DNA of 64,000 nt from an uncultured Chloroflexia bacterium (GTDB lineage: Bacteria > Chloroflexota > Limnocylindria > Limnocylindrales > CSP1-4). A model generated the notes under the pieces. That model worked only from the letters and a program-made list of their open reading frames with translations. It searched no databases and was not told the DNA's origin. Positions 4,141 through 50,801 of this stretch are shown here, one piece after another; positions within the stretch are counted from its first letter, which is position 1, and each line of letters opens with the position of its first letter. The position numbers and the translations under genes are program-made. The stretch spans positions 13,740 to 77,739 of the forward strand of contig CAVZND010000014.1 in NCBI GenBank assembly GCA_963776545.1. Reading direction: 5' to 3'.

Positions 4141-4142
4141 GG

Positions 4143-10719: not shown

Positions 10720-10747
10720 CGCGGCACAGCGTACCGTGCCGTCCGCG

Positions 10748-14640: not shown

Positions 14641-14712
14641 GCCGCGATGGTACCGGCCGGGCGCCGACCCGGGGTCCGCCGTGGTCCGACCCGCCCATGT
14701 ACGCTTCGGTCG

Positions 14713-16899: not shown

Positions 16900-16909
16900 C
16901 CGGCCGGCC

Positions 16910-18268: not shown

Positions 18269-18539
18269 CGGTCAGTCTCCGTCACGGCCGTCGACGCTCG
18301 CGCCCACGCCGCCGCGCCGTCGGCCGGTCGGATGGTCGACCGGTTCGTCCCGAGGATCCGGATCCCCTTTACCGCCGCAACGCCGGGCCGCGTGGGGGCT
18401 CGGTCTGGCAGTCGGGCGCGGGAGGCGCCGTCTCTAGTGTACGACGCCTCGGAATCGGGTCGCCAGCCGCGTGAAGCGCAGGTGGATCGGCAGGATCAGG
18501 ATCCAGAGCGCCTCCGCGGCGGCCGGGGCAGCTGTTCGT

Positions 18540-21500
18540 TCACTTGCGGTCCTTCTTCGACGATCGCCGTTTCGTCGGCTCCCGCTTCGGTCCTGTCCGG
18601 GTCTTCGCCGACGGCACCGCGGCGCCGTTGCGCGACGCCCCGGCCAGCGAGGTCCTGAGCGCGTCGATCCGATAGCCGGCGGCCTTCGCGCTCGCCACGA
18701 GGCGGGCCGCGGCGTCCGGGCCGGCCGGCGGAGCGCGACGCTTCGGGGGCGCCTCGATCGCATCGAGCCTCCGCGCCCACTCGAGCTGAGCGGCGAACCG
18801 ATCACCGTCGAGCCACTCGATGCCTTCCCACGTGTTGACGCCGATGGCGGTCCGGACGACGTCGCTCGCCAGCCAGCGCTCGAGGAGCCGGGCATCCGCG
18901 GTCCGTGCCGGCCCACGGATGCCCGAAGGCCGAGGCAGGGTCAGCAGGACGCGGACCTGGTCGGCCACGGTCCAGGCCTCCCCCTCGTCGAGACCGGTCT
19001 CGCGCAGGCCCGCGGCCAACGCGCCGGACAGGCGGAGCTCGTCGTACCACGCCCGGCTGGTCGCGGCGACATCGCCGTCAACGGCCAGCTCCCCGGTCTG
19101 CGACAGCGCCAGCCACCCCAGGAGCGCGGCTCGATCCATCCGCGACGATGGGAGGTCCGCGCCCGTCATCGCCGGCGCGACGCGGCGTCGAACGGCGGCC
19201 GCCAAGACCGCCGGGTCTCCCGACACGCCGGTCGCCTGGCCGATCGCCGCCAGGAAGACGGCGAACCGCCGCTCAAGTTCGTCGAGCGCCTTCGGCGTGG
19301 CCGTGCCATCGAGGACGGCGCTCACGAGCCCGCTCGCGAAGATCGCCCGCAACGGCCTATGTACCGGTTCGAGCTGCAGCTCTCGGAGCGCATCCTCGAG
19401 CGAGGGCACCGGCCGCTCCCCGAGGCGTGTCGCCAGGTGCGCCCACTGGCCCGACATCCCGTCATGGATCTCGCGGAACTCCCAGAAGACATGCGTGGCG
19501 TAGGCATCGAGCGCCACGTAGAGGCCCCGATCGTGCAGGTCGTGGGCCGAGCGCAGCGACTCGAGGCCACTCCGGGCATCGCGAAACGCCACGAACACGG
19601 TCGGGTCGTCCGGGAGGCCCAATCCGTCCGCGAGCGAGCGTCGGACGATCCGCTTCCGGCCGCCGCCATCCTTGCGGGCGTACGGCGCCGATTCCCGGAT
19701 CCAGCCGCTGGTCGAGCCGTACCGGTCGTGGTAGACGACCAGGGACCGCTCGGGCCCGCTGCCGTTCGAGTAGGCGAAGACGTCCTCGTCGACCCGGCCG
19801 CTGTCGGTGACCAGGTCGTACAGCAGGAAGTCGTGCGCCTCGGCGAACCAGGCGCGACGGTGGAGCAGCGGGAAGATCTCGCGCTCGTGCCGTTCCACCA
19901 GCCACGGATCGGGGTGTTCGTCGAGCGTCGCGCGCTGGAACTCCATGCCGTACTTCTCGCTGAAGCCCTGGACCTGGCCATGACCGAGCATCGGGAGGCC
20001 GGGGAGCGTGGCGAGGACCGTGGCGACACCGAAGTACTTGTCGCCCTTGCCGAACTGCTCGAGCGCCGTCTTCTCGTCGGGATTGCTCATGAAGTTGACG
20101 TACCGCTTGAGGATCTCGGGGTCGAATTCGATGGTTTCCTTGATGACCCGTCGGTAGCCCTCGCCGTCCTCGTCGCGGAGCATGTGCATGAAGGCGCTGT
20201 TGTAGACCCGGTGCATGCCGAGGGTTCGGACGAAGTACCCCTCGAGCAGCCAGAACGCCTCGGCCAGCAGGAGGGTGTCCGGGACCTCGGCTGCCACGCG
20301 GTCGACCACGTCCCGCCAGAACTCGACGGGCATCCGCCTGGCGAACTCGCGCCTGGACATCGCGTGCTCGGCCCGCGACGGGATGCCGCCCGGTTGCCCT
20401 GGCTCCGGCCACCAGAGGCGCTCGATATGCTTCCTCGCAAGGACCATCGCGGCGTCGAAGCGGATGATCGGGAATCGTCGGGCGACCGCGAGGATCGTCG
20501 CGATGACCTGTTCGCGGACGGCGGGATCCAGGAAGTCGAGCTGGGCCGTGTCGTTCCAGGGGAAGCTCGTCCCGTCGTTGCCGTGGTAGACGTAGCGGGT
20601 CGCCCCGGTCCGCCGATCGAACCGCTTGAAGACGACGGCCGCGTCGCTGTCGTCCCAGTAGTGGTCCTCGAGGACGATGCCGACCCGATCGTCCGACGAG
20701 AGGTCCGGGCCGCCGAAGGTGTACGCGGGGTAGGGTGGCTCGTCGAGGGACAGGAACCACTCCGGGTGCTCGACGACCCAGTTCGAGTCGATGCCCATGT
20801 GGTTGGGCACCATGTCGCTCGCCAGGCGGATGCCACGCGCCCAGGCCCGGTCGCGGAGGGTCGCGTACGCCGCCTCGCCGCCGAGGTCGTCGGCGATCCG
20901 GTAGTCGTCGAGCGAGTAGGCGGACGCGACCGCGTCGACGTTGCCGCGCATGCGCTTGATCCGTTCCGACGCCTTGGAGCGTTCCCACAAGCCGATGAGC
21001 CAGAGCCCGGTGACGCCCCAGCGGGCGAGCATGTCGAGCTCCTCGTCGGGGATCGCGTCGAGCTTCCTGATCTGGCGGCCGTACGCCCGCGACAGCTGGT
21101 CGAGCCACACGTACGTGCTCTTCGCCATCAGGACGACGCGCGGCATCCACGCCGAGTCCGACGAGAACGCCTCCGGCTCGTCCGCACTGCCGAGCTTGGG
21201 CACCTCCCCGCGCGTCGTCCCACCGCCGCCGCCGAAGCGCAAGTGCAGCGCCGCCTCCTCCTCGGCGAGGATCCCGAGTGCCAGGTCCAGGCGGGCCAAC
21301 AGGGCGATGAGGGCGTCGCCCAGGATGCCGGCCCAACGTTCGCGGATGTAGCGCAGCTGGCCGGCCAGCGAGGTCGGGGAGTGGCGCGCCGGCGCACGGA
21401 GCAGCTCGAGGAGCGATTGGCCGTCGGGTCCGATCCGGGGGCCCTCGGCGAACGCGACCTCCAATCCGGCGATGGCATCGCGATAGCGCGTGGCCCGCTC

Positions 21501-33058: not shown

Positions 33059-34684
33059 ATGTCCTTCGATGGTCTCGGGCTGTCGCCCGAGCTCCTCAGC
33101 ACGGTCGCCAGACAGGGCTACACCGTGCCCACCCCCGTCCAGGCAGAAGCCATCCCGCTGGTCCTCGCCGGCCGCGACCTCATGGCCGGCGCGCAGACCG
33201 GCACCGGCAAGACGGCCGCGTTCGTGCTGCCGATGATGCAGCGGCTCCATGCCAGCGCCCGCGACGGTCGTCGCGGCGTTCGCGCGCTCATCCTCGCGCC
33301 GACCCGCGAACTCGCCCTCCAGATCGCCGAGAGTGTCCGTACCTACGGCGCGGGGAGACCCATCCGCTCGGCCGCCATCTATGGCGGCGTCGGCTTCGAT
33401 CCGCAGGTCCGGGCCCTGCGTGGTGGGGCCGAGATCGTCATCGCGACGCCCGGTCGCCTGCTCGACCACGTCGGGCAGCGGACCATCGACCTGTCCCAGG
33501 TGGAGATCCTCGTCCTCGACGAGGCCGACCGAATGCTCGACATGGGCTTCATCCGCGACATCCGCAAGATCCTCGCGATCCTGCCCGCGCAGCGCCAGAA
33601 CCTCCTCTTCTCGGCGACCTTCTCCGATGACATCCGACGGCTGGCAGGCGGTCTGCTCCACGACCCGGCGACCGTCCAGGTCACGCCCCGCAACACCCCG
33701 TCCGAGCTGGTCAGCCAGGTCGTCCACCCGGTCGATCGCGAGCGCAAGCGCGAGCTGCTCAGCCACCTCGTGAAGTCCGGCGTCATCTACCAGGCGCTCG
33801 TCTTCACCCGGACGAAGCACGGCGCGAACCGCCTCGCCACGCAGCTCGAGCACGACGGCATCCCGGCCACCGCGATCCACGGCAACAAGAGCCAGCCCCA
33901 ACGGGTTCGCGCGCTGGCCGACTTCAAGGCGAACAAGTACGCGATCCTCGTCGCGACCGAGGTCGCCGCGCGCGGCCTCGACATCGACTCGCTGCCGCAC
34001 GTCGTCAACTTCGAGTTGCCGATGGTCGCCGAGGACTACGTCCACCGGATCGGCCGGACAGGTCGTGCCGGCGTCGACGGCCGGGCCGTCTCGCTGGTCT
34101 GCGTTGACGAAGCGAAGCTCCTGTACGACATCGAGCGCGTCCTCGGCCGTTCCATCCCGTCCGAGGTTGTCCCGGGCTTCGAGCCCGATCCCCGCATCCG
34201 ACCCGAGGCGATCCTGCGCGGCGGCCTAGGTGGCGCCCGACCGGGTGTCGGCCCCCGCCAACGACCCGTCGGCGCGCCCCGACATGCCGGTGCGGGGTCG
34301 CCGCAGCGAGCGATCAGCCGCCCGGGCGGCGCTCGACCGCACGCCGCGGCGCGGTCGTTCGGTTCGACTCCGGCGGGAGTGCCGAACGCCCATCGCGGGG
34401 GCGGGCATGCGTCCGGCCCGAACCGCGGTGGCCACGCCCCGGCGCGGCGACTCGAAGGCGGCCGCCCGTCAGGCGGTCATCCCTCGCAGCCCGGGCAGTG
34501 GCTCGGCCAGCGCCCGAACCAGGGTGGTCGACCCGCCCAGGGCGGGCCGAACGATCACGGCCCGCGTTCGAGCAACGGCCCGCGTCCGAACCACGGGCCG
34601 CGCCCGAACGGACGTCCCGAGGGCGCTCCATCGGCGCTGCCGGGCGAGCGCCTGGCACGCGTCGGCGGCCGAGACGAACGCTAG
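33059..34684 (+). CDS. DEAD-box ATP-dependent RNA helicase with Arg/Gly-rich C-terminal tail
   Basis: Q-motif, [15 protein letters not shown] and HRIGRTGR motifs. ~196-nt leader upstream. Confidence 0.9.
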
Positions 34685-34851
34685 AGGCCCGGTGCCTGGC
34701 CCGAGGCCGAAGACCTCCACCGGGGTCGGCCCCCGGCATCAAGCGGCTTGGCCCTTCGAAGCAGCGCGGCGGGGGCTGCTACGATGCCCGTCACCGCACA
34801 GAGGGCAGTCTGACGGCTGCACGCCTGAGCAGCGCACCGCGAGCACGACGC

Positions 34852-37800
34852 ATGCGAATCGGGGCGTGCGTTCTTGTTGTGCTCGCCTCCGCGACGCTGA
34901 GCCTGCCGCCAGCGGCCGCCGCCGCGGCGACGCTCCCCGCTGGCTTCAGTGACGACCCCGTGGTCAGCGTGGGCTCCCCGACGGACCTCGCCTTCACGCC
35001 CGATGGGCGGATGCTGATCACGACCCAACCGGGCCGACTACGCGTCGTCGCCGACGGGACGCTCCTGCCGACGGCCGCCCTCGACCTCGTCGCCGCGGGC
35101 ACTGTCTGCTCGAACTCGGAGCGCGGCCTGCTTGGAGTGGCCGTGGATCCGCACTTCACCGCGAACGGCTACATCTACCTCTTCCACACATTCAAGAAGT
35201 TCGGCGTGTGCGATGTGAACACGTCGCAGGCTCCCGTCCACCGCGTCTCACGCTTCACTCTGTCACCGTCGCCGGCGAACACGGTCGATCTGGGGAGCGA
35301 ACTCGTGCTCATCGACAACATCCCCTCCCCGGCGGGTTACCACAACGCCGGTGATCTGGCGATCGCTGCTGACGGCTTCCTGTATGTCAGCGTCGGTGAC
35401 GGCGGCTGCCAGTTGGACGACGCGAGTCGATGCTCCACCCAGAACGACAACGCGCGCTCCCTCGATACGTTGCTTGGCAAGATCCTCCGCATCGGCCTCG
35501 ACGGATCCGTCCCGACCACGAACCCCTACGCTGGACTAAGCGGCGCCCGTCGTTGCGGCGATCCGGCCGGTGTGCCGAACGGGACGGGTCCGTGCATCGA
35601 AACGTTCGCGTCCGGGCTACGGAACCCATTCCGATTCGCCTTTCGGCCAGGAACTAGTGAATTCCACATCAATGACGTGGGCCAGGCGACCTGGGAGGAG
35701 ATCGACCTTGGTCGCGCGGGCGCCGACTACGGCTGGAATGTCCGCGAGGGCGACTGCGCCGTGGGCTCGACCTCGGACTGCGGAGCCCAGCCGGCAGGCA
35801 TGACGAACCCGATCCACGCTTACGGACACGCAGACGGCTGCCGATCGATCACCGGCGGTGCGTTCGTGCCGGTCGGGGTCTGGCCCTCTGCGTTCGATAA
35901 CGCGTACCTGTTCAGCGATTACATCTGCGGCAAGATCTTCCGCCTGGTGCCGAACGCATCGGGCGGCTTCGACCAGGTGGAGTTCGCCACAGGTCTCGGC
36001 GGATCGAGTGCGGTCGCCATGACGTTCGGCCCGTACGGGAATACCCAGGCGCTCTACTACACCACATACGCTGGCGGTGGCTCGGTGAGGCGGATCGCTG
36101 CGGTCACGAGCACGAATAGCCTCCCCATCGCGAACGCCGGGACGGCCGGGACGGCGAGCGGGGTGCCGGTGGCCATCACCCTGACCGGTTCGGACGTCGA
36201 GACCTGCGACCTGTCGTTCACCGCCCCGGCCACGACCGTCGCCGGCGGGACACTCGGCGGGCTCGATCCACGCGGCTGCGTCTCGGGCAGTCCGAACACC
36301 GACTCGGCGTCGGTCACGTACACCCCGCCAGGCGGCGGCTTCGCCGGTCCCGACAGCTTCACCTTCACGGTCGACGACGGGACGGACCCGTCCACACCAA
36401 AGACGATCTCGATCACGGTCGGCGGGTCGGCCGGTACCGCCACGTTCGGCGCGGCCGCCGACGCCCAGGTCAAATCGAGCAGCGCCAACACCAACTACGG
36501 CACGCTCGCCACGATCCGGACCCGCGACGGGACCGGCTCCTCGTCCAGCCCGATCTACCGGAGTTATCTGCAGTTCAACGTGGCCGGCGTGTCGGGCACG
36601 GTCAGCGACGTCAAGCTGCGCCTGTTCGTGACCGACCCGAGCCCGCACCTCCAGCAGGTCTTCGCGGTCACCCCGGACACCTGGACCGAGTCGGGACCCG
36701 GCGGCATCACCTACAACGCGACCCCGGCGATCGACACCCCGGCGAGCCCGCTCGCGAGCGCACCCGTGCCGACGACTGGCTGGGTCGAGATCGACCTGCC
36801 GAACAGTGCCGTGAGCGCCAACGGCCCGCTCAGCTTCGCGCTCAAGAGCGCCGGCGGCAACAGCGCCATCTTCAGCTCCAGGGAGGGCGCCAACCGACCC
36901 CAGCTCGTGGTCACCTACGCCGGGGGGACTGCCAACTCGCCCCCCACGGCGACCGGCGGGTCTCCGACGGGGACGACCGAGGACAAGGCGCTGACCCTGA
37001 CCATCGGGGGCTCCGATCAGGAAACGTGCGACCTGATCTTCAACGTGCCAGCGACGACGACCCATGGGACGATCGGCTCGCCGACGCCTGTGGGCTGCAC
37101 GTCAGGCAGCCCGAATGCTGACACCGCCAGCGTGACGTACACGCCGGCCGCCAACTACAGCGGCCCCGACAGTTTCGGCTACACGGTGACCGACAGCGCT
37201 GGCGGGACGTCCACGCCGTTCACTGTCAACGTCACCGTCAGTCCGGTCAACGACGTCCCCATCGCGAACGCCGGGACGGCCGGGACGGCGAGCGGGGTGC
37301 CGGTGGCCATCACCCTGACCGGTTCGGACGTCGAGACCTGCGACCTGTCGTTCACCGCCCCGGCCACGACCGTCGCCGGCGGGACACTCGGCGGGCTCGA
37401 TCCACGCGGCTGCGTCTCGGGCAGTCCGAACACCGACTCGGCGTCGGTCACGTACACCCCGCCAGGCGGCGGCTTCGCCGGTCCCGACAGCTTCACCTTC
37501 ACGGTCGACGACGGGACGGACCCGTCCACACCAAAGACGATCTCGATCACGGTCGGCGGGTCGGCCGGTACCGCCACGTTCGGCGCGGCCGCCGACGCCC
37601 AGGTCAAATCGAGCAGCGCCAACACCAACTACGGCACGCTCGCCACGATCCGGACCCGCGACGGGACCGGCTCCTCGTCCAGCCCGATCTACCGGAGTTA
37701 TCTGCAGTTCAACGTGGCCGGCGTGTCGGGCACGGTCAGCGACGTCAAGCTGCGCCTGTTCGTGACCGACCCGAGCCCGCACCTCCAGCAGGTCTTCGCG

Positions 37801-38061
37801 GTCACCCCGGACACCTGGACCGAGTCGGGACCCGGCGGCATCACCTACAACGCGACCCCGGCGATCGACACCCCGGCGAGCCCGCTCGCGAGCGCACCCG
37901 TGCCGACGACTGGCTGGGTCGAGATCGACCTGCCGAACAGTGCCGTGAGCGCCAACGGCCCGCTCAGCTTCGCGCTCAAGAGCGCCGGCGGCAACAGCGC
38001 CATCTTCAGCTCCAGGGAGGGCGCCAACCGACCCCAGCTCGTGGTCACCTACGGGCCTTGA
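34852..38061 (+). CDS. secreted multidomain protein: PQQ-dependent sugar dehydrogenase (GSDH-like) beta-propeller + Ig-like/cadherin-like units + DNRLRE-like beta-sandwich, duplicated module
   Basis: Signal peptide MRIGACVLVVLASATLSLPPAAAAAA. GSDH motifs (GLLGVAVDP, LRNPFRFAF). The 3' half holds two identical 792-bp modules. Confidence 0.75.
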   Translation: MRIGACVLVVLASATLSLPPAAAAAATLPAGFSDDPVVSVGSPTDLAFTPDGRMLITTQPGRLRVVADGTLLPTAALDLVAAGTVCSNSERGLLGVAVDPHFTANGYIYLFHTFKKFGVCDVNTSQAPVHRVSRFTLSPSPANTVDLGSELVLIDNIPSPAGYHNAGDLAIAADGFLYVSVGDGGCQLDDASRCSTQNDNARSLDTLLGKILRIGLDGSVPTTNPYAGLSGARRCGDPAGVPNGTGPCIETFASGLRNPFRFAFRPGTSEFHINDVGQATWEEIDLGRAGADYGWNVREGDCAVGSTSDCGAQPAGMTNPIHAYGHADGCRSITGGAFVPVGVWPSAFDNAYLFSDYICGKIFRLVPNASGGFDQVEFATGLGGSSAVAMTFGPYGNTQALYYTTYAGGGSVRRIAAVTSTNSLPIANAGTAGTASGVPVAITLTGSDVETCDLSFTAPATTVAGGTLGGLDPRGCVSGSPNTDSASVTYTPPGGGFAGPDSFTFTVDDGTDPSTPKTISITVGGSAGTATFGAAADAQVKSSSANTNYGTLATIRTRDGTGSSSSPIYRSYLQFNVAGVSGTVSDVKLRLFVTDPSPHLQQVFAVTPDTWTESGPGGITYNATPAIDTPASPLASAPVPTTGWVEIDLPNSAVSANGPLSFALKSAGGNSAIFSSREGANRPQLVVTYAGGTANSPPTATGGSPTGTTEDKALTLTIGGSDQETCDLIFNVPATTTHGTIGSPTPVGCTSGSPNADTASVTYTPAANYSGPDSFGYTVTDSAGGTSTPFTVNVTVSPVNDVPIANAGTAGTASGVPVAITLTGSDVETCDLSFTAPATTVAGGTLGGLDPRGCVSGSPNTDSASVTYTPPGGGFAGPDSFTFTVDDGTDPSTPKTISITVGGSAGTATFGAAADAQVKSSSANTNYGTLATIRTRDGTGSSSSPIYRSYLQFNVAGVSGTVSDVKLRLFVTDPSPHLQQVFAVTPDTWTESGPGGITYNATPAIDTPASPLASAPVPTTGWVEIDLPNSAVSANGPLSFALKSAGGNSAIFSSREGANRPQLVVTYGP
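36123..36914. repeat. direct repeat copy 1 (792 bp), identical to 37257..38048
   Basis: Nucleotide-identical over the full length. Encodes the Ig-like + DNRLRE-like module. Confidence 0.9.
37257..38048. repeat. direct repeat copy 2 (792 bp)
   Basis: Identical to 36123..36914, separated by a 342-bp diverged Ig-like unit. Confidence 0.9.
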
Positions 38062-40730: not shown

Positions 40731-40815
40731 GCGACACCCGCGCCCGATGGGCTTGCGGCGCCAGCACAACCAACCACGGCGAGGATGACCGCAGCGACCG
40801 CCGCGACCAAGCACA

Positions 40816-42036
40816 TCATCGGGTGAACTCCAATCCGTCGAGGACCGGCTGCACGTCCTTCAGGAAGGCGTCCCAGTCGGCGGCCGGAGCCTCGATGTCG
40901 ACGACCAAGGACGACCCGTCGCCGCGGTCGAGCAGGATGTATCTCGCCCTTCCGGTCCCGATCAGCCGCAATCGGTTCGACCAGTCGCCGCCGTCCGACC
41001 CGCTAAACGAGAACGTGTAGAGGCCGGCGTCGCAAGTGGGCGTCCAGCCGGGAGTCATCGAGAGGTCGACCATGATCCCGCGCAGGCCGCCGATCGTGAC
41101 CTCGGTCGGCGCCGAGACGACGAGACCCGGGAGGGTCCCGAGCCAGTTCGAGAGGTCGTCAGGCGTCCGCCCGACACCGGCGGCGCCCGCGTTCGTGTCG
41201 CAAGGCACGACCTGGTCCGACGCGTAGGCATTCGAGATCAGCGTGACCGTCGCCGAGTCGGATCCGATCGGCCGCCCGAGCCCGAACAGGCCGTTCTTCA
41301 TGTCGGGGCCACCCGCCCAGCCATCGGGCACCGTGTACGCCAGTCGTCCGGTCGTGCCATAGCTGAACGGACGGAAGTCCGTGGCCTGATGGCGACCCGG
41401 CTGCAGGGGCCCGATGTCGGTCCTGGTCCAGTCGCCGTGCAGGACGGCTGCCCGGTCAGTGCACGCATCGCTCACGGGCGTCAACGTCAGGCGCTGACCA
41501 CCCAGCGAGAGGCGGAACTCGTACGTACCTGCGTCGCCCACGTGGCAGTGCCAGTACTGGGACCCCACATCGAGCATCCGAAGCTCGAGGCGGTCGGGTC
41601 CGACCAACGACGCCGTGTTGTGCACGTCGGCGCGGTCGAAGATCGTGAGCGACGTCGGGCCGATGACGATATCCCACCCGAGGACCGTGGTGCCCGAATG
41701 CATGAAAGGAAGCGGGTGGTCCCCGACAGGACGCCATTCGGCCTGGAGCGACGCCGGCAGCGTGCCTGACCCCGCAGACAGCGGGCCCCCGGTGCCGCCG
41801 GTCCGGATGATGAGCCCGGCCCCGATCCCGGCCACGGCCAGCACGACCGCGGCCGCGGCGGCGAACCGCAGGCCGGGATGGATGGCGGGCAACCTCGTTC
41901 GGAGACCGGCGAGGCGTGGCTGCGGGGCACGGTCGATGCGATCGAGGGTGTCGACGAGGAAGCGCTCGGGCATCTGCGTCGGACCCTCGCTGAACCACCG
42001 ATCGAGGACGTTGTCGAGGTCAAGGTCACGCGTCAT
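40816..42036 (-). CDS. putative anti-sigma factor / membrane-anchored protein co-transcribed with the ECF sigma
   Basis: ATGA overlap with the sigma gene. Cytoplasmic N-terminus, one TM segment, ~300-aa extracytoplasmic domain. Confidence 0.55.
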   Translation of the reverse strand: MTRDLDLDNVLDRWFSEGPTQMPERFLVDTLDRIDRAPQPRLAGLRTRLPAIHPGLRFAAAAAVVLAVAGIGAGLIIRTGGTGGPLSAGSGTLPASLQAEWRPVGDHPLPFMHSGTTVLGWDIVIGPTSLTIFDRADVHNTASLVGPDRLELRMLDVGSQYWHCHVGDAGTYEFRLSLGGQRLTLTPVSDACTDRAAVLHGDWTRTDIGPLQPGRHQATDFRPFSYGTTGRLAYTVPDGWAGGPDMKNGLFGLGRPIGSDSATVTLISNAYASDQVVPCDTNAGAAGVGRTPDDLSNWLGTLPGLVVSAPTEVTIGGLRGIMVDLSMTPGWTPTCDAGLYTFSFSGSDGGDWSNRLRLIGTGRARYILLDRGDGSSLVVDIEAPAADWDAFLKDVQPVLDGLEFTR

Positions 42037-42584
42037 GCCGGTCGTCCTCCGATGGCGATCACCCGGGCATCCGCGTCCAGCGCCGCGCGCATCGCGCGGT
42101 GGGCATGGTGGAGTCGGGAACCGGCCGTGCCGACCGGGATGCCCAGGATCTCGGCGATCTCAGCGGCGTCGCGGCCTTCGAAGTGGTGGAGCACGAGGAG
42201 TGCGCGTTGCTCGGCCGGCAGGCGTCGGAAGCCACGCTCGAGCTGGTCGCGATCGGCGACGCTGAGGAAGTCGTCGCGCACCGTCGGGGCGTCCATCGGC
42301 AGGACGCGCAGGTTCGCGACGCGGCGACGCTCACGCTTCGCTTCGGCGAGGCACGCGCGGACGACGAGTCGGTGGAGCCAGGCGTCGAAGCGGTCCGGAT
42401 CCCGGAGGCCGGGCAGGTCCCGCCAGGCAACGATCAGCGCCTCCTGCAGGGCGTCCTCGGCCCGATCGACGTCACGGAGGATCCGCTGGGCGAGCGCGTA
42501 CAGGCGGTCGCCCCGCACCCGGATCAGGTCGGCATACGCCTCCCGGTCGCGGCCCCGTGCCGCTTCGACCAGATCGCGATCCAT
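42033..42584 (-). CDS. RNA polymerase ECF-type sigma-70 factor
   Basis: Sigma70 region 2 and region 4 motifs. Confidence 0.85.
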   Translation of the reverse strand: MDRDLVEAARGRDREAYADLIRVRGDRLYALAQRILRDVDRAEDALQEALIVAWRDLPGLRDPDRFDAWLHRLVVRACLAEAKRERRRVANLRVLPMDAPTVRDDFLSVADRDQLERGFRRLPAEQRALLVLHHFEGRDAAEIAEILGIPVGTAGSRLHHAHRAMRAALDADARVIAIGGRPA

Positions 42585-42764
42585 CGCGCCTGCTTTGCGC
42601 TGGCACCCAGAGGGGGCGCTGTCCGGACACTATGGGGCCGAAACGCGGGCTGCCCTTCAATCTCGGGCGATGGGAGCGCAAACGCCTCGACCTTTGACGA
42701 CCCGGGCCTCGACGCGACGGGGATCATCGCGGCATGATGCTCAGGCCCTGCATGGAGTCGGTGG

Positions 42765-43925
42765 ATGTTGTCCCGTCCCGAGCCCGCGTGCCTGCTGATC
42801 GCTGACATCTCCGGTTACACCAGCTACCTGGCCGGTGCCGAGCTCGATCACGCCCAGGACATCCTGGCCGACCTGATGACCACCGTCGTGACCGCCCTCA
42901 GGCCGACGTTCCGCCTGGCGAAGCTCGAAGGCGATGCGGCCTTCGCCTATGTGATCGCGGAGCGGATCGACGGCTCGCAGCTCCTCGACACGGTCGAACG
43001 GACCTACTTCGCGTTCCGGCGGCGACTCCGCGACATCGCCCAGGCGACCGCCTGCGAGTGCAACGCCTGCGTCCTGATGCCGCGGCTCGATCTCAAGGTC
43101 ATCGCCCACCACGGTTCGGTCATCCGCCACCGGGTCGCCGGACACGAGGAGCTGGTCGGCTCCGACGTCATCGTCGCCCATCGGCTGCTCAAGAACCACG
43201 TCGTCGAACGGCTCGGTCTGCCGGCCTACGCCCTGTTCAGCGCGCCGTGCATCGAGATGATGGGCGTGGACCCCGTCGCGCTCGGCATGGCCGAGCATCG
43301 GGACACGTACGACGACCTGGGCGAGGTCGTCGGCTGGGTCCACGATCTCGGGGCGGCCTGGGCCGCCGAACTCGAGCGCCGGCGCGTGGTCGTCTCGGAG
43401 CGTGACGCCGGGTACATCTACGACGTCGTCCAGCCGGCGCCCCGGGACATCGTTTGGTCGTTCGTCACCGACCCGGCCCTCCGGCCCCGGTGGCAGGCTG
43501 GCGTGACCGGCGTGGACCAGCTGCCCACCAGCCCCCGACGCGGCACCGGGACGATGAACCATTGCATGCATGGGGCGGAGGTCCTCGTCGAGGAGATCCT
43601 CGACTGGCGACCCGTCGACCACGTCACGATCCGCACGACCCTGCCCAACGGCTTCCAGGCCATGAACACGTTCGCGTTCGAGGACGCAGAGGAGGGGACG
43701 CGTGTTCGGATCCTTTTCACCTGGGGCAAGAACCGTCGCGAGCGCGAGGCGGCCGGGGCCATGCGCGAGTTCATCGCGCCGCTGGTCGAACTCGGCCAGT
43801 CGAACCTGCACGACGTACTGGTCGAGGAGATGGCGAACCGTGCGGCGATCGCGGCGGAGGTCCCGCCCGAACCGGCGGCACCCGAATCCCTTGAACGGGA
43901 GCTGCGCGAGCCGATCCGGCTCTAG
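42765..43925 (+). CDS. DUF2652 domain + SRPBCC (polyketide cyclase/dehydrase-like) protein
   Basis: 386 aa; divergent from the ECF sigma. Confidence 0.6.
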   Translation: MLSRPEPACLLIADISGYTSYLAGAELDHAQDILADLMTTVVTALRPTFRLAKLEGDAAFAYVIAERIDGSQLLDTVERTYFAFRRRLRDIAQATACECNACVLMPRLDLKVIAHHGSVIRHRVAGHEELVGSDVIVAHRLLKNHVVERLGLPAYALFSAPCIEMMGVDPVALGMAEHRDTYDDLGEVVGWVHDLGAAWAAELERRRVVVSERDAGYIYDVVQPAPRDIVWSFVTDPALRPRWQAGVTGVDQLPTSPRRGTGTMNHCMHGAEVLVEEILDWRPVDHVTIRTTLPNGFQAMNTFAFEDAEEGTRVRILFTWGKNRREREAAGAMREFIAPLVELGQSNLHDVLVEEMANRAAIAAEVPPEPAAPESLERELREPIRL

Positions 43926-43940
43926 AAGGAGGATCGAGCT

Positions 43941-44384
43941 GTGAGCCCATCGGTCGACATCAGTGCACTCCCAAGGTGGGGTTTTGCCGATCCCGGACCG
44001 CTGCGAGATGAGCTGACCGCCCTGGCCTTGTCCGGTCACAAGACGACCACGGCCAGCCTGTTGGTCGAGTTCGCGCTCGAGGGCGAGTCCGTCCCGGTGG
44101 CCGGCCAGCTCGACGTGCTCATGGACTCGGACCAGCGTCCGGTCGCGATCGTCGAGAACATCAGCGTCCGCACCGTGCGATTGGCCGACGTCGACAATCA
44201 GCATGCGATCGATGAGGGTGAGGGGTATGCCGATGCCGCCGCGTTCCGGGTCGACCACGAGGCCTACTGGAACGGCTACATCGACTGGATCCGGAACGGT
44301 CTCGGCGATCCCGGCTTCACCCTGACCGATGACACGCTGGTCGTCCTCGAGCGGTTCCGGATCCTCGAACGCCTCGAGCCGTGA
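43941..44384 (+). CDS. ASCH domain protein
   Basis: 147 aa, ASCH-like beta-barrel pattern. Confidence 0.65.
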   Translation: MSPSVDISALPRWGFADPGPLRDELTALALSGHKTTTASLLVEFALEGESVPVAGQLDVLMDSDQRPVAIVENISVRTVRLADVDNQHAIDEGEGYADAAAFRVDHEAYWNGYIDWIRNGLGDPGFTLTDDTLVVLERFRILERLEP

Positions 44385-44393
44385 GGAATGAAA

Positions 44394-44424
44394 CCTCGTC
44401 GCCCTTCCGGAGCGCTAGCCGATA
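44394..44424. repeat. imperfect direct repeat A (28/31 identical to 45438..45468)
   Basis: CCTCGTCGCcCTTCCgGAGCGCTAGCCGaTA. Contains overlapping palindromes AGCGCT/GCTAGC. Confidence 0.8.
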
Positions 44425-44513
44425 ACTCGGCTCACCCAGCCTAGGATCCGCTGAGGGGGCCGCCGTCAGCTCGACGGTCATCGAATCGGCCGTTCGCACT
44501 CCCGGCCGAAGCG

Positions 44514-45329
44514 TTGCAGCTGTGTGCCATCATCCTGCCGATGAGCCAGAAGCCGGGAGGAGAGGGTCCCGCCACGCCGTCGCCTCCAGGTGACCCCACC
44601 TGGCTGCATCGGAACGTCGGGAAGATTTTCGCGGGCGTAGTGACACTCGTCGTAGCGCCGCTCTTTGTCGCGATCGTTGCCCCGGCGATCACCCCCTTGG
44701 TCATTGGCGGCCCCTCGCCTGCACCGACCCACGTCTTTGAGGAGACCAACGGACCTACAGCTCCTCCACTAACGGATACAGACGTCCGCTTCTACCGGCC
44801 ATTCACGGACCAGGGCCTGCCGCCCTACGCTGACGTGACGAAAGTCAAGGGCGGATGCTTCTCTGAGTCGATGACGAGCGCGGATCCGCAGGCCCTGCGG
44901 TGTTCGTACGACGATGTCGATGGGAGTCCGATCCTCGATCCGTGTTGGGTGAATGTCGAACGAACGCAGGTGGCCTGTCCCAGGTCGCCATGGGGCAGCG
45001 ATATCACCTTGATGGATCCCTTGACCGAGCTTTATGAGGACCCAAACGCTGACGGGCTGGCAACGCCAGATCCGACGAGCAATCCTTTCGCGATCGAACT
45101 TGTGACGGCGGCAGGAACGCACTACGGGTGCATAGCGATCGTCGCCTACGCCGGCGACGTCGCCGGCTACCGCCGGAATTACGACTGCGCACCAATCGAC
45201 AATGACGTCGTCCTGCCCGGCTACGCCTTCGGCGATCCCGATCGTTCGCGAGACCTGTGGCGCATTCGGTTCGCGGCGACCGACAGCACCGACCTAGTCC
45301 TCGTCAGCGTGGTGCGCGTCTGGTTGTAG
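44514..45329 (+). CDS. hypothetical membrane-anchored secreted protein (Cys-containing), lower GC
   Basis: TTG at 44514 or ATG at 44541. One N-terminal TM segment. GC ~60% against ~70% in the flanks. Confidence 0.5.
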   Translation: MQLCAIILPMSQKPGGEGPATPSPPGDPTWLHRNVGKIFAGVVTLVVAPLFVAIVAPAITPLVIGGPSPAPTHVFEETNGPTAPPLTDTDVRFYRPFTDQGLPPYADVTKVKGGCFSESMTSADPQALRCSYDDVDGSPILDPCWVNVERTQVACPRSPWGSDITLMDPLTELYEDPNADGLATPDPTSNPFAIELVTAAGTHYGCIAIVAYAGDVAGYRRNYDCAPIDNDVVLPGYAFGDPDRSRDLWRIRFAATDSTDLVLVSVVRVWL

Positions 45330-45437
45330 CCCACCAATCTCGATCGGCGGCGGAGTCAGGCGTCCGGGTTCGGCTCGAGCGTCATCGGTGCGACGGCCTC
45401 CTCCTATGGCCGCTGCGAACTGCGACCAGTCGGCCAC

Positions 45438-45468
45438 CCTCGTCGCACTTCCCGAGCGCTAGCCGTTA
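45438..45468. repeat. imperfect direct repeat B
   Basis: CCTCGTCGCaCTTCCcGAGCGCTAGCCGtTA. Lies between the convergent genes 44514..45329 and 45527..46264. Confidence 0.8.
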
Positions 45469-45526
45469 GTCGCGAGTCTCGCCATCCTGACGACCCTGTG
45501 AGGTTGCACGAACGCCTCATTCGCGC

Positions 45527-46264
45527 TCAGGGCCAAAGCTGTGGCCGCGTGGTTGGCTTTGCTAACGAGACAGTGACTGCACCCGTCCAGACCTGCTCGA
45601 CGTCCTCGGCGCCCATCACGGCAGCCGCGGCAGCGCGCTGAGCCCAGTCGAGAACGCGTCGCCAACCCGGGTCGGTGATGACTGGCTCCAGCGTGCAGCC
45701 ATCGCGCATTTCGTAGAGGTGATCACTGGTCCGGCATGCCAGCATCGTCAGCGCCGAGTCGATGCGGCTCGTGGCCGAGTACGACGTGTCCTCAAGACCC
45801 AACAGCCGCAAGCGTGCGTAGTCCGGGAAAGGTGGGGTGCCGGCGGGCAGGGTGGCGGCCAGGGCCTCGACCTCGGCGGAAGTCATGCGCTCAGTCAAGG
45901 TGACGATCTGGAGGGCCCGATCGCCGTGTGGCCCAAAGGCGACTGCAAGGGGTAGTTCCTCGAGCACCCGGTAGGCCTCGCAGTAGCCGGTTGTCGGCCA
46001 CTTCGCCGTGAAGCTGCGCTCCTCGAGACCCTCGACTTCACCGACCCTGAACAGTCGGGCGTTTGGGCCGTAGGTGTGGCAGTCCGTCGCCTCGCGGACC
46101 AGCTCGAAGCGATATGGCTGACCCATGAACCAGGAGGGCGCAGGCGTGTCCTTGGCGTCACGTCGCTCACCGACCACGGGGCAGCGCTCATGGCGGCGGA
46201 TCTCCGGGTTCCAGTGGACGAAATAGGTCTGGTCACTGGCAACCCGACGTAGGCGCTTGAACAT
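45527..46264 (-). CDS. hypothetical protein, lower GC
   Basis: ATG at 46264. The track ORF's N-terminal extension (…LCQLSY…) is antisense of the tRNA. Confidence 0.5.
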   Translation of the reverse strand: MFKRLRRVASDQTYFVHWNPEIRRHERCPVVGERRDAKDTPAPSWFMGQPYRFELVREATDCHTYGPNARLFRVGEVEGLEERSFTAKWPTTGYCEAYRVLEELPLAVAFGPHGDRALQIVTLTERMTSAEVEALAATLPAGTPPFPDYARLRLLGLEDTSYSATSRIDSALTMLACRTSDHLYEMRDGCTLEPVITDPGWRRVLDWAQRAAAAAVMGAEDVEQVWTGAVTVSLAKPTTRPQLWP

Positions 46265-46363
46265 GCGAGCAGCGTCCACTGCAGGTGTGTGAGCCGCAAG
46301 TGGGCCGAACGTCCTGCCCTTCGCCAGGTCGTCGAAGAACGCCTGATAGACTTCGCGCCGCGG

Positions 46364-46439
46364 GCGGGAGTAGCTCAGTTGGCAGAGCGGCAGCCTTCCA
46401 AGCTGCATGTCGCGAGTTCGAACCTCGTCTCCCGCTCCA
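46364..46439 (+). tRNA. tRNA-Gly (anticodon UCC), CCA encoded
   Basis: Cloverleaf reconstructed by hand. Acceptor GCGGGAG/CTCCCGC, D-arm GCTC-AGTTGGCA-GAGC, anticodon stem GCAGC/GCTGC, loop CTTCCAA, T-loop TTCGAAC, discriminator U. Confidence 0.9.
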
Positions 46440-46471
46440 GACCCAACCTCAGTCAGCCGGCGTTTCGTGCC

Positions 46472-47047
46472 TCACCGCGCGCCGATCACGCCGGATCGGC
46501 TGGCCTGCCCGAGGTGGGCGACCCAGGACTCGAGCACGCGACGATGCCGGTCTTCGAGCTTGACCAGCCCTCGCCTCGAGTGCAGCAGGTCGCGCACTGC
46601 GTCGAAGGTCATCCCGTCGGTCTTCATGAGGTAGGCGGCGAGGACCGTCGCCGATCGACCCCTCCCCTTCGCGCAGTGGATGAGGAGCGTCCGACCGTCC
46701 GCGAGCTGGTCCTCGATCCAGACGACAGCCTCGGTCAGGACGGCCTCGTCCGGCACGGTCACGTCGGGCACGTGGAACTGGCGATGCGTGATGCCGTGCG
46801 CGTCGTAGAAGGCGAGCTTGGACGTGCGCTCCGCCCGGGTGTCCAGCACGGCCGTGATCCCGAGCGTGGTGATCGCCTCGTAGTCCCGCCGGTATGTCGG
46901 CGCGCCGCCGAGCCAGAGCCTGGGCTCGATCTGCGAGAACCAGGCGTTGCCCATGAGTCGCTCGTACGTGAACCGGATCGCGGGGTACAGGCGGTCGAAC
47001 GCCCGGTGGAACGTGGACAGGCGGGGTCGCGGCTCAGGGGACGACAA
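46472..47047 (-). CDS. dual-specificity protein phosphatase (CX5R)
   Basis: HCAKGRGRS active-site motif. Confidence 0.8.
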   Translation of the reverse strand: MSSPEPRPRLSTFHRAFDRLYPAIRFTYERLMGNAWFSQIEPRLWLGGAPTYRRDYEAITTLGITAVLDTRAERTSKLAFYDAHGITHRQFHVPDVTVPDEAVLTEAVVWIEDQLADGRTLLIHCAKGRGRSATVLAAYLMKTDGMTFDAVRDLLHSRRGLVKLEDRHRRVLESWVAHLGQASRSGVIGAR

Positions 47048-47957
47048 TGTCCACGGCCCCGGGCATGACGTCGACCGTCACGGGCGTGCGCCCGATGTAC
47101 TCGCCGTCCGTCCACACGGGCTGGTCGGGTTGGGTCTCGATCGTGATCGAGCGGCACTGGCGGTGGTAGCGGGTCGCTTCCGCCGTGGGCAGGTCCAGGA
47201 AGCGGATGACGGCGGTCGCGATCGTCGCGTAGGAGTTCTTGTCGATGAGGAAGCAGTCGAGCAGCCCGTCATCGACCGCATACGAGTGGGTGATCCTGAG
47301 TCCGCTCCCCATCATCCCGGAATTGACGACGTAGACCCTCGAGGCGTCGAACTCGAGCAATTCGCCGTCCAGCTCGACGTGGTAGTGGGCGTTGGGCGTC
47401 GCGTCTCCGACATGGCGGGTGGCGTTGACCAGGTACGCGAACACCCCGTACTTGTCCTTGAGCTCTCGACTCGTCTGCGCCTCTGGTTCGACCCCCACGT
47501 ACATCCGCTGCACGAAGTACCGGTCGGCGGTCTCAGCCTGCCCGAGGTCGCGGAGCCGGCCGACGTCGACGGCACGCGTCGTCCGACTGGTGCACAAGAC
47601 CTCCGTGGCCTCCCGGAGATTGCTCGGCACGCCCATCTCCCGGGCGAACCCGTTGCCCGTCCCCCCGGGCAGGATGCCCATCGGCGTTCGGTGCCCGGTC
47701 CGGACCGCCTCCTTCAGGAGGGCATTGACGATCTCGTGCTGCGTGCCGTCTCCGCCGTAGCCGGCGACGAGGTCCATGCCGTCCTCGGTCGCCTTCCTCG
47801 CTTGGGCGGCGGCATCCCCGTACTTGTGGGTGACGCTGACGTCCCATTCCACCTCGTACCGTCGGAAGACGTCGTTGATCGTGTTGAGGATCGGCTCGTC
47901 GCCGCCCGAGGCCGGGTTGATGATCACGTGCACACGGCGGTACGGCGCATCGGGCAC
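47034..47957 (-). CDS. diacylglycerol kinase catalytic-domain lipid kinase (YegS/DagK-like)
   Basis: GGDGT motif and NPxSGG N-terminus. Confidence 0.85.
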   Translation of the reverse strand: MPDAPYRRVHVIINPASGGDEPILNTINDVFRRYEVEWDVSVTHKYGDAAAQARKATEDGMDLVAGYGGDGTQHEIVNALLKEAVRTGHRTPMGILPGGTGNGFAREMGVPSNLREATEVLCTSRTTRAVDVGRLRDLGQAETADRYFVQRMYVGVEPEAQTSRELKDKYGVFAYLVNATRHVGDATPNAHYHVELDGELLEFDASRVYVVNSGMMGSGLRITHSYAVDDGLLDCFLIDKNSYATIATAVIRFLDLPTAEATRYHRQCRSITIETQPDQPVWTDGEYIGRTPVTVDVMPGAVDIVVP

Positions 47958-48126
47958 GGGCGTGCTCCTGCTTCGGTCAGCCCTGTCGTGACGATGATGC
48001 CTGAATTTGTATCGCTCGTCGCGTCCCGAGCAGGCGTGTGGCTGTGGACATGTGCACGTTTGGTAGCATCAGCCTAGTCATACGAGCTGGACCGCAGCGC
48101 CTGCGGCCGTCCCACGGGAGTCCGCC

Positions 48127-48909
48127 ATGACGACCGGTACGCTCGCGGGCCAGGCGGCGATCGTCACCGGTGGCGCTCGAGGCATCGGCCGGGCGATCGC
48201 GGCACGGTTCGCCCGCGACGGCGCCGACGTCCTGATCGCCGACCTTGACCAGGCGACCGGCGAGACCACCGCGGCGGAGATCGGCGACGAAGCGGCTGGC
48301 GGAGTGGCCTTCGTCCAGGCCGATTGCGCCGACCGTCACGACGTCGAGCGTGTCGTGGACCAGGCGATCGGCATGTTCGGACGGCTCGACATCTTCATGG
48401 CCAACGCGGGCATCGGCTCCACTGTCGCGTTCCTCGACACGACCGACGCGCAGTGGGATCGCGTGCTGGCCACGAACCTGCGCGGCGCCTTCATCGGGGT
48501 GCAGTCGGCGGCGCGGGCGATGCGCGCGGCGGGCAACGGCCGGATCGTCGTGACAGCCTCGACGAACGCGTTCTGGATGGAGACGAACCTCGCCGCGTAC
48601 AACGCGTCGAAGGCGGGCGTCCTTGCCATGGTCCGGACCGCCGCGATGGAGCTCGCGCCCCTCGGCATCACGGTCAACGCCGTCGGGCCGGGCCTGATCG
48701 CGACCGACCTGACCCGCGAGGTGACCGACGATCCCGCCAGCGCCCGGGCCTACCTCAGCCAGATCCCCCTCGGGCGCTTCGGCGAACCGGACGACGTCGC
48801 GGGCGCCGTGGCGTTCCTCGTCTCGCCCGACGCGGCCTGGATCACTGGCCACCTCCTCGTCGTCGATGGCGGCCAGACCCTCGGAACCCCGTTCCGCGAC
48901 CCACCATGA
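48127..48909 (+). CDS. SDR family oxidoreductase
   Basis: TGGARGIG, NAG and YNASK motifs. Confidence 0.85.
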   Translation: MTTGTLAGQAAIVTGGARGIGRAIAARFARDGADVLIADLDQATGETTAAEIGDEAAGGVAFVQADCADRHDVERVVDQAIGMFGRLDIFMANAGIGSTVAFLDTTDAQWDRVLATNLRGAFIGVQSAARAMRAAGNGRIVVTASTNAFWMETNLAAYNASKAGVLAMVRTAAMELAPLGITVNAVGPGLIATDLTREVTDDPASARAYLSQIPLGRFGEPDDVAGAVAFLVSPDAAWITGHLLVVDGGQTLGTPFRDPP

Positions 48910-50801
48910 TCCGGCGGCCGGTCGCGATGCTCGTGGTGGCCGCCCTGCTCGTCGGGGCCTGTGAGTCCGCGCAGCCATCGACGCCGCCGACGACGAGCCC
49001 CACCCCGGCCGCCGTCGATTGGCACGACCCGAGCCTGCCGCCCGACGTCCGCGCCGAGGCCCTCCTCGCGGCGATGACGGTCGACGAGAAGATCGGCCAG
49101 ATGACCCAGCTCGAGAAAGACTCGGTCGACCCGGCCGGGGTCACGAACCTGCTGCTAGGCTCCGTCCTGAGCGGCGGTGGCGGGGCCCCGAACCAGAACG
49201 ACGCGGCCGGCTGGTACGCCATGGTGGAGGCGTACCAGGAGGCGGCCCTCGCGACCCGCCTCGGCATCCCGATCCTCTACGGCGTGGACGCGGTGCACGG
49301 TCACGGTAACGTGGTGGGCGCCACGATCTTCCCTCACCAGATCGGCCTGGGCGCGGCGAACGACGCCGGCCTCGTCGAGCGGATCGGCCGGGCCACAGCG
49401 GTCGAGCTGGCGGCCACGGGCATCCGCTGGGACTTCGGCCCCGTGCTGGCCGTTCCGCAGGACGTCCGCTGGGGGCGGACGTACGAGGGCTTCAGCGAGG
49501 ATCCACTGATCGTCGCTGACCTCGGCAGCGCGTTCATCCGCGGCCTCCAGGGCCCGGACCTGACCGCGATCGATTCGGCCGCCGCGACCGCCAAGCACTT
49601 CGTCGGTGATGGCGGCACCGCCTGGGGTTCGTCAACGACCCAGGACTACGCCATCGACCAGGGCGTGACCGACCTCGACGAAGCCACGTTCCGCGCCATC
49701 CATCTCACGCCGTACGAGGATGCGATCGCGGCGGGCGTCCGGGTCGTGATGGCCTCGTTCTCCAGCACGGGCGCCGGCAAGGTCCACGGCGACCATCACC
49801 TGCTGACCGAGGTGCTCAAGGGCGAGCTCGGGTTCACCGGGTTCATCGTCTCGGACTGGGGGGCGGTCGACCAGGTCGATCCCGACTACGACACCGCGGT
49901 GGCGACGGCCATCTCCGCGGGCATCGACATGGTCATGGTCCCGTTCGACGCCGCACGCTTCCAGGCGGCTGTCCGGACGGGCCTCGCCGCCGGCACGATC
50001 GAGGGCACGCGCGTGGATGACGCGGTCGCGCGGATCCTGCGCGTGAAGTTCGAGCTCGGTCTCTTCGAGACGCCGATCCCGCCCGGACGCGCAGCCGACC
50101 TCGGTTCGGCCGCGGATCGCGACCTGGCCCGGAGTGCCGCGGCCGCCTCGGCGGTGGTGCTCAAGACCACGGCCGGGGTGCTGCCCGTGGCCGGCGACTC
50201 CGGCCGCGTCCTGTTGGCCGGCTCCGGCGCGGACGACATCGGGCTGCAGTCGGGCGGCTGGACGATCGAGTGGCAGGGATCCGCCGGCCCGATCACGCCG
50301 GGGACGACGATCGCAGGCGCCCTGTCGGCTCGCCTGGGCGATCGCGTGACGGTGAACCCGGCCGGGGACTTCCCGGCCGGGACGCGAGCCCGCACCGGGA
50401 TCGTCGTGCTCGCCGAGCCGCCGTACGCCGAGGGCCCGGGCGACTCCGGCACGCTCGCCCTGCCGCGGGCCGATGTCGCGATCGTGGGCAAGGTCCGGCC
50501 CCTGGTCGACCGACTCGTCGTGGTCATCCTGTCGGGCCGGCCGGTCATGCTCGGTCGCTTCTGGTCCGATGCCGATGCGGTGATCGCCGCCTGGCTGCCC
50601 GGGACCGAGGGAACGGGCATCGCGGACGTGCTGCTCGGGGACGTGCCGTTCGGGGCCACGACGCCGTACACGTGGCCGCAGGCGCCCGACGACGCACCCC
50701 GGACTGGCAAGGACGCGTGCGACGGCGCGGTCTTCCCGAGCGGCTACGGCCTCGACGCGAGCGGGACGTTGCTCGGTCCGGAAGCCTGCGCGACGCCCTG
50801 A
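48906..50801 (+). CDS. glycoside hydrolase family 3 (beta-glucosidase-like), lipoprotein
   Basis: Lipobox LLVGAC. GH3 motifs (KHFVGDG, SDW). ATGA overlap with the upstream SDR. Confidence 0.85.
   Translation: MIRRPVAMLVVAALLVGACESAQPSTPPTTSPTPAAVDWHDPSLPPDVRAEALLAAMTVDEKIGQMTQLEKDSVDPAGVTNLLLGSVLSGGGGAPNQNDAAGWYAMVEAYQEAALATRLGIPILYGVDAVHGHGNVVGATIFPHQIGLGAANDAGLVERIGRATAVELAATGIRWDFGPVLAVPQDVRWGRTYEGFSEDPLIVADLGSAFIRGLQGPDLTAIDSAAATAKHFVGDGGTAWGSSTTQDYAIDQGVTDLDEATFRAIHLTPYEDAIAAGVRVVMASFSSTGAGKVHGDHHLLTEVLKGELGFTGFIVSDWGAVDQVDPDYDTAVATAISAGIDMVMVPFDAARFQAAVRTGLAAGTIEGTRVDDAVARILRVKFELGLFETPIPPGRAADLGSAADRDLARSAAAASAVVLKTTAGVLPVAGDSGRVLLAGSGADDIGLQSGGWTIEWQGSAGPITPGTTIAGALSARLGDRVTVNPAGDFPAGTRARTGIVVLAEPPYAEGPGDSGTLALPRADVAIVGKVRPLVDRLVVVILSGRPVMLGRFWSDADAVIAAWLPGTEGTGIADVLLGDVPFGATTPYTWPQAPDDAPRTGKDACDGAVFPSGYGLDASGTLLGPEACATP

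Follow-up and report, generated by a model that had tools for sequence, protein, structure and literature searches.

Results

Composition and gene content of the patch

The stretch of DNA analysed here (64,000 nucleotides of contig CAVZND010000014.1 from an uncultured Chloroflexia bacterium, taken at its full length and called the window) contains an accessory patch at 44385..46363, with no strand assigned, that runs from the stop codon of an ASCH protein gene to base 1 of a tRNA-Gly(UCC) gene and is delimited by GC content and by the points at which homology to two relatives, L014 and L016, breaks off. Within it lie two convergent orphan open reading frames (ORFs), gene C on the + strand and gene D on the - strand, together with two copies of a 31-bp direct repeat that bracket gene C. 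The patch is very probably an acquired islet tied to modules that target tRNA-Gly, because unrelated DNA takes its place in relatives, its genes are rare, its overall composition and third-codon-position GC (GC3) are deviant, and gene D is tied to repeated attachment (att) sequences elsewhere. The same evidence (synteny, gene rarity, composition and the D-att link) supports the small horizontally acquired cassette that had been suggested in an original prediction made from this DNA.

The GC content of the patch is 64.9%, compared with a window mean of 70.9%, and the lowest-GC kilobase of the window (63.5%) falls inside it. The original prediction had described a fall from roughly 70% to roughly 60%; the drop itself is real, but it amounts to about 6 points, not 10, the value of 60.3% being reached only in the lowest 300 bp (44800-45099). 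GC3 is 0.73-0.74 for gene C and 0.76-0.78 for gene D, according to the ORF bounds chosen, against a mean of 0.86 for 45 coding-like ORFs, giving z = -2.2 and z = -1.8, respectively. Both the composition and the codon usage of the patch are atypical, as for a tRNA-integrated genomic island.

Gene C (44541..45329, + strand) encodes a protein of 262 aa whose short cytoplasmic N-terminus leads into a single N-terminal transmembrane helix, followed by a Pro-rich linker and a conserved ~170-aa domain with six Cys residues. The 3' end of the gene is where it had been placed previously, but the start is not: the ATG at 44541 is likelier than the alternative TTG at 44514, as the 262-aa product is identical to a database protein (P0001). 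The AF2 model of the C protein is poor, with a predicted local distance difference test (pLDDT) score of 49. Gene D (45527..46264, - strand) encodes a cytoplasmic protein of 245 aa, the C-terminal half of which is predicted with moderate confidence to be mostly helical. Its ATG, at 46264, lies 100 bp from the tRNA; the distance agrees with the earlier description, in which the gene was said to end there, but it is the 5' end of D that faces the tRNA and not the 3' end. The AF2 model of D has a pLDDT of 58, with half of it confident, and Foldseek searches of the model against the PDB and BFVD returned nothing below E = 0.1.

Both genes lack an assigned function, as had been proposed, with no match to Pfam, NCBIfam or PADLOC for either. 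They represent very rare orphan families, labelled here as mobile cargo: among 5.8 billion proteins there are six homologs of C and, by word search, four of D, and a full HMMER profile search yielded 30 D-family cluster representatives in 1.84 billion. Residues ~59-141 of D, its most conserved stretch, match PHROG 8332 (function unassigned; E = 1.5e-7). No relatives of the patch genes were found in IMG/VR, and tblastn was without matches in 50,697 phage genomes (INPHARED) and in plasmids (PLSDB). A prophage or phage remnant was rejected as an explanation, the remote match of D to PHROG 8332 being the sole link. The D-family profile also matched the Rep_trans structure of RepDE (4cwe), at borderline significance (E = 0.002) and in the active-site region of this nicking enzyme; 26 D-family members lack a Pfam Rep_trans signal, and conservation of the local Tyr does not extend across the family. 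The assignment of D as a Rep_trans-type enzyme was therefore set aside, as a weak RepDE match that lacks Pfam support, and is kept as a lead only.

The most distant D homolog from the word search (52% aa identity) lies on L017 (1-5453), where its neighbours are an HTH_3 plus Peptidase_M78 (ImmA/IrrE-like) gene, a 94-aa gene and an SseB-like gene, a context that looks accessory or mobile.

Comparison with close relatives

The relatives L014 and L016 share ~90% nucleotide identity with the window in the flanks of the patch. On its left, the patch is preceded by the gene for a DUF2652 plus SRPBCC protein (42765-43925) and, directly after it, by the ASCH protein gene (43941-44384). Homology between L014 and the window is lost at 43923 and returns precisely with base 1 of the tRNA, at 46364. 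L016 retains the ASCH gene up to its stop codon (44384), continues with 697 bp of unrelated DNA as far as the tRNA and, after the tRNA, jumps to 48093. The presence of unrelated DNA in both relatives, together with the return of homology at tRNA base 1, means that the patch is a true indel, and position 44385 on the left and the tRNA on the right are the true boundaries of the variable segment. The near-identical contig L004 has the same ASCH-C-D-tRNA arrangement as the window.

Identity between L004 and the window reaches 99-100% from ~44000 to 50000 and falls to 80-95% left of ~43950, in a region (40750-44000) that holds the genes for an extracytoplasmic function (ECF) sigma factor, a putative anti-sigma factor and the DUF2652 protein. 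This mosaic identity makes the DUF2652/ASCH junction a probable recombination breakpoint as well, and it suggests either a recent import by recombination or hypervariability of the sigma/anti-sigma region.

Where the window has C and D, the two relatives carry a gene (L014:12481-13123, L016:~4229-4870) that encodes two tandem C-x-D-C...DFDH...C-A-N-C-H motifs, HNH-like by eye and without a significant Pfam match. It is situated directly upstream of tRNA-Gly, and its stop codon falls within the first 10 nt of the tRNA. Furthermore, both relatives have a second copy of the final ~60 bp of DUF2652 (window 43857-43925) placed ~400 bp downstream (L014:11075-11650, L016:2920-3740), and the duplicates bracket an inserted gene for a membrane protein of 84/85 aa with weak holin-like Pfam matches. 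L016 has a third partial copy of the DUF2652 end just before ASCH; in the window the DUF2652 and ASCH genes are directly adjacent.

tRNA-Gly(UCC) and the modules that it bounds

The tRNA-Gly(UCC) gene (46364..46439, + strand), which forms the right boundary of the patch and an insertion hotspot, was identified both by ARAGORN and by Rfam (68.8 bits), in agreement with the original prediction, and is the only RNA in the window to pass Rfam. Exactly the same allele occurs in L001, a 1.08-Mb contig of a more distant metagenome-assembled genome labelled 'uncultured Chloroflexia bacterium'; the L014/L016 alleles differ from it at 8 of 76 positions, compensatory stem changes included. The 46 bp upstream of the tRNA (46318..46363, + strand) likewise align with two att copies of L001 (a and d) and not with the regions upstream of the tRNA in L014 and L016, the nucleotide homology between the window and L001 over flank plus tRNA extending from 46317 to 46442.

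L001 contains the intact tRNA-Gly(UCC) and, in direct orientation, three partial copies of its 5' part (7528-7605, 9799-9860 and 19687-19812), the best of which consists of the 46-bp upstream flank followed by tRNA nucleotides 1-41; all three then continue into the same arm, CAATGCCAGGTCATGCCGG. The four tRNA copies bound three tandem modules of ~5.0, 2.2 and 9.8 kb. The third module ends in a homolog of D whose 5' end faces the att copy, so that order and orientation are those of D and the tRNA in the window. The D homolog adjoins a tRNA-half copy in L002 as well, and on L031, an independent JGI contig with a D homolog of 74% aa identity, a degenerate tRNA-Gly 5' half plus arm lies just upstream of D. 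At the nucleotide level, homology to D covers 45507-46317 in L001 and L002 (the best D homolog, with 80% aa identity, is in L001) and 45527-46317 in L031. The patch is linked to the L001 islands by the flank plus tRNA allele, by gene D and by the 31-bp motif described below, and it is a mosaic with respect to them, the D segment and the motif segment belonging to different L001 modules.

The islands on L001-L003 carry several divergent D paralogs in tandem, beside a STAND NTPase and WD40 genes, a setting more in keeping with cargo than with a recombinase. The cargo of the L001 region (2366-19812), seen also on L002 and L003, includes the tandem D paralogs, a TIR/STAND NTPase accompanied by WD40 genes, secreted lipoproteins and a cREC_REC protein; one ORF that is fused by a frameshift in L001 is intact in L002. 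A 360-aa protein encoded next to an att copy in L001 was considered as an integrase and rejected: it is secreted, has a lipoprotein-like signal sequence and gave no sequence match in the PDB. A search of IMG/VR with the att arm CAATGCCAGGTCATGCCGG for an autonomous element found none.

Within the 46-bp flank, TGATAGACT (46344-46352) resembles an extended -10 element by eye and ends ~12 nt before the mature 5' end of the tRNA; a two-hexamer promoter scan of the flank found nothing. Judging from TGATAGACT, the flank probably carries the tRNA promoter.

The 31-bp direct repeat

Copy 1 of the direct repeat (44394..44424, + strand) begins 9 nt past the end of the ASCH gene, and the ATG of gene C follows 117 nt downstream of it; copy 2 (45438..45468, + strand) falls in the interval in which the 3' ends of C and D face each other. 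The two are identical at 28 of 31 positions and both contain the palindromes AGCGCT and GCTAGC, exactly as had been reported; the motif can be written as CTTCCSGAGCGCKMGCCGWWA. With at most 3 mismatches allowed, a degenerate consensus of 28 nt finds only these two sites in the 64 kb and none in 100 dinucleotide-preserving shuffles. Direct pairs matching at 28 or more of 31 positions within 3 kb number three in the whole window, the other two being internal to genes of repetitive proteins, and none in ten Markov simulations. The repeat is not due to chance.

Both copies can be read in a frame that ends in LVALPER* (NLVALPER* in copy 1, TLVALPER* in copy 2), and two of the three mismatches between them are synonymous in it. 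An in-frame stop eight codons upstream of copy 1 means that no gene body is left there. The edges of the repeat are sharp, and the flanks of the two copies are unrelated on both sides. L016 has no counterpart of copy 1 downstream of ASCH. A third occurrence of the motif was found through a 37-nt block (45448..45484, + strand) that spans the core of copy 2 and 16 nt downstream and is common to L001:5452-5488 and L002:3015-3051, with 89% identity and E = 2.4e-7. In L001, where it is located in the first tRNA-Gly module, this sequence covers the end of a small lipoprotein-like ORF (...TLPERAP*) and the 17 nt that follow its stop codon, and it precedes a 104-aa gene on the same strand by ~50-60 nt.

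The motif is restricted in its distribution. A 21-nt degenerate pattern that accommodates all known variants gave eight matches across 185,579 species genomes of GTDB and a further 11 across the JGI metagenomes; among them only the L001 copy shows similarity in its flanks, and the remainder are chance matches in unrelated surroundings. A stricter 29-nt scan of the JGI metagenomes found none, IMG/VR contains none, and the GTDB-held contigs of the L001 genome contain a single true copy. Neither conservation of both genes in related genomes nor wide occurrence of the motif, the two outcomes that the original prediction had set against an acquired cassette, was observed.

One core that occurs with three different pairs of flanks fits a recombination junction, an assignment that we hold tentatively, at slightly less than even chances. 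On this reading, the two copies in the window most probably represent an att-like duplication that arose when the C gene inserted. The strongest competing explanation is that the copies are passive relics, i.e. 3' ends of a small gene (ending LVALPER*) that were joined by deletions and rearrangements in a decaying island, with no insertion at the repeat and no present function. The shared reading frame and its synonymous mismatches speak for such relics, as do the L001 copy, which is a genuine 3' end of a small ORF, and the mosaic structure of the patch. Set against this are the sharp edges and the unrelated flanks on both sides, the survival of only the last 31 nt in both copies, which would call for two independent truncations at the same base, and conservation that runs 16-17 nt beyond the stop codon. 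We consider passive relics unlikely.

A cis-regulatory role, in which the repeat would be a promoter or operator for a regulator encoded by the element or by the host, or a shared terminator, is more improbable still. The positions of copy 1 ahead of C and of the L001 copy ahead of the 104-aa gene would suit such a role, and a TA-to-GC change in L001 preserves, by eye, the central 6-bp palindrome (GCTAGC to GCGCGC). However, copy 2 sits between two convergent 3' ends and has no gene downstream, which makes regulation unlikely, and a consensus scan found no terminator-like or sigma-70-like sites at the repeat. There is no third copy in the 64 kb and none upstream of the local ECF sigma gene. 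On this basis a generic regulatory site, with two copies in the window and a single one in the L001 genome's contigs, was rejected. Also rejected was an intrinsic terminator or structured RNA, in view of the lack of a stem-loop with a T-tract, of any Rfam match, and of folding better than that of shuffled sequences (z = 0.0-1.1 on both strands for all three motif copies). The shared operator or terminator elements offered as the alternative in the original prediction are not supported, the motif also being nearly absent from public genomes.

Surroundings of the patch and other repeats

The DUF2652 protein encoded to the left of the patch is a core-gene product, with more than 4800 homologs, many of them 70-93% identical, and an ECF sigma/anti-sigma-like pair lies further left. 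To the right of the tRNA are genes for a dual-specificity phosphatase, a diacylglycerol (DAG)-kinase-like protein, a short-chain dehydrogenase/reductase (SDR) and a GH3 glycosidase. This 3' side of the tRNA (46440-48092) is variable too: L016 lacks the phosphatase and DAG-kinase genes, its tRNA being joined to 48093; L001 has an ABM-domain gene there; and the 46 nt after the tRNA contain ~10 differences between the window and the otherwise near-identical L004. The tRNA-Gly(UCC) gene is a two-sided hotspot of gene turnover.

Elsewhere in the window, ARAGORN calls a 90-nt tRNA-Val(CAC) inside an ORF (14880-14969), which is probably a false positive because it is below the Rfam gathering threshold. 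A direct repeat at 36118-38054, with a period of ~1134 bp, a length of ~800 bp and ~92% identity, lies inside a giant Big_9/CBM96 surface protein gene (34108-38061) and shows in the L004 and L014 alignments as additional BLAST pieces. In the gene for a 755-aa protein, a 28/31 direct repeat at 7961-8480, its copies spaced 489 bp apart, corresponds to an internal domain duplication with the motif ...DEWGIGRAG.../...DQWGIGRAG....

Discussion

The account that we favour, as reasonably probable, combines a decayed, strain-variable, integrase-less islet at tRNA-Gly(UCC) with a nested one-gene insertion bracketed by the att-like 31-bp duplication. Integrative modules would insert on the 5' side of tRNA-Gly(UCC), and the patch would be their remnant. 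Each module would bring its own copy of the first 41 nt of the tRNA together with ~46 bp of upstream flank, probably including the tRNA promoter. With the 5' part supplied by the module, the tRNA would stay intact after insertion and the displaced 5' half would mark the far end; restoration of the 3' part of the tRNA was reportedly described by Williams in 2002 as the commoner case. Gene D would be the terminal gene of one module, abutting the tRNA-proximal junction at 46317/46318, and the module appears to have been cut off ~20 nt past the D stop codon, with attL and any recombinase presumably lost. The C segment (1044 bp including one repeat) may have entered a short target in the island DNA by recombination, leaving a copy of the target at each end, much like attL and attR, and this target may originally have been the 3' end of a small island-borne gene. 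The DUF2652-end duplicates that surround one gene in L014 and L016 provide a precedent for such an insertion at the same locus.

Several observations weigh against this account. As the original prediction had remarked of the integrase, no recombinase or integrase is present among the genes within ~10 kb of the patch, nor is there one in the annotated near-identical contigs; the patch genes and their neighbours have no recombinase match in Pfam, PHROG or NCBIfam, and none is recognisable in the window, in L004, in L014 or, by Pfam and PHROGs, in the L001 modules. The 64-kb window contains no second copy of tRNA-Gly, of its half or of its flank, so the left island boundary follows from synteny only. 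The whole tRNA, including its 3' half, is L001-like, which a pure exchange of the 5' half leaves unexplained. For the nested insertion, an empty site (ASCH, one motif and D, lacking C) was not found, an exact look-up of the ASCH protein giving only ASCH-C-D arrangements, and the recombination origin of the repeat is thus something that we infer. The motif is known from three contexts only and is absent from around the C homologs in L005 and L018, contexts which led us to discard the idea that it travels with gene C.

A broader proposal is that the 31-bp motif, the tRNA-Gly 5'-half repeats and the DUF2652 3'-end repeats are all junctions of one unrecognised trans-acting system that has no element-encoded integrase, moves units of one to a few genes in this lineage and uses a recombinase of undescribed type; we regard this as highly doubtful. 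The D family would be a candidate for the recombinase, as it occupies, in three independent contexts, the att-adjacent place usual for integrase genes and shows the borderline profile match to RepDE. A native patch, with its lower GC due to the amino-acid composition or fast evolution of lineage-specific genes and its repeat coincidental, would suit the modest size of the GC drop and the same arrangement in L004, but is largely refuted by synteny (unrelated DNA in relatives at ~90% nucleotide identity), by the link of D to att repeats elsewhere and by the absence of the repeat from all shuffles and simulations, and can be dismissed as extremely improbable.

An acquired islet of this kind resembles the tDNA islands of Islander in its adjacency to a tRNA gene, its absence from close relatives (a presence/absence polymorphism with a breakpoint at the tRNA), its deviant composition and its orphan cargo. 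L001 is further comparable to the Islander tandem arrays, in which a regenerated tRNA and displaced fragments mark the ends of modules in tandem. Unlike Islander islands, the window lacks an integrase and any displaced tRNA fragment (L001 has three, and L031 has one as well), the islet is only 2 kb long, and the identity block consists of the tRNA 5' half plus upstream flank; a 5' fragment upstream of the tDNA is accepted as an island configuration in Islander (PMC4383910). Degenerate genomic islets, remnants of islands from which the integrase and one att site have gone, offer a further parallel, being small, with accessory genes only and one recognisable junction at the tRNA. The patch differs in holding a nested single-gene segment, bracketed by a 31-bp direct repeat of its own that has no relation to the tRNA.

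The nested segment itself recalls integrative elements that target the 3' ends of protein-coding genes and duplicate them on insertion, because the repeat reads as the last eight codons plus stop (compare the L001 copy) and because of the one-gene insertion between ~60-bp DUF2652-end duplicates in L014 and L016. It differs from them in that a single gene (0.3-1 kb) is inserted, no recombinase is present, and the body of the repeat's gene is gone from the window. Integron cassettes are similar insofar as a single promoter-poor gene lies between short repeated sites and one-gene units vary between strains, but there is no intI, no imperfect inverted-repeat architecture of the attC type and no uniform array. 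An integron cassette was rejected, since neither copy contains the GTTRRRY core (GTTAGTC in copy 2 fails at the third R) and no integrase is present. Target duplications of DDE transposons and miniature inverted-repeat transposable elements (MITEs) measure ~2-14 bp. Such elements were also rejected: the repeat is 31 bp long and imperfect, no inverted repeat joins the inner ends of the direct repeats, and there is no transposase.

Islands that decay at tRNA genes are otherwise familiar biology; what is unusual here is that no recombinase occurs in any module seen, and that one-gene insertions between duplicated gene ends of 30-60 bp are recurrent. For an uncultured, high-GC soil lineage that has received little study, the analysis identifies a hotspot of gene turnover at tRNA-Gly(UCC), and the tRNA 5' half together with the arm CAATGCCAGGTCATGCCGG provides a concrete att sequence with which an autonomous element may be sought.

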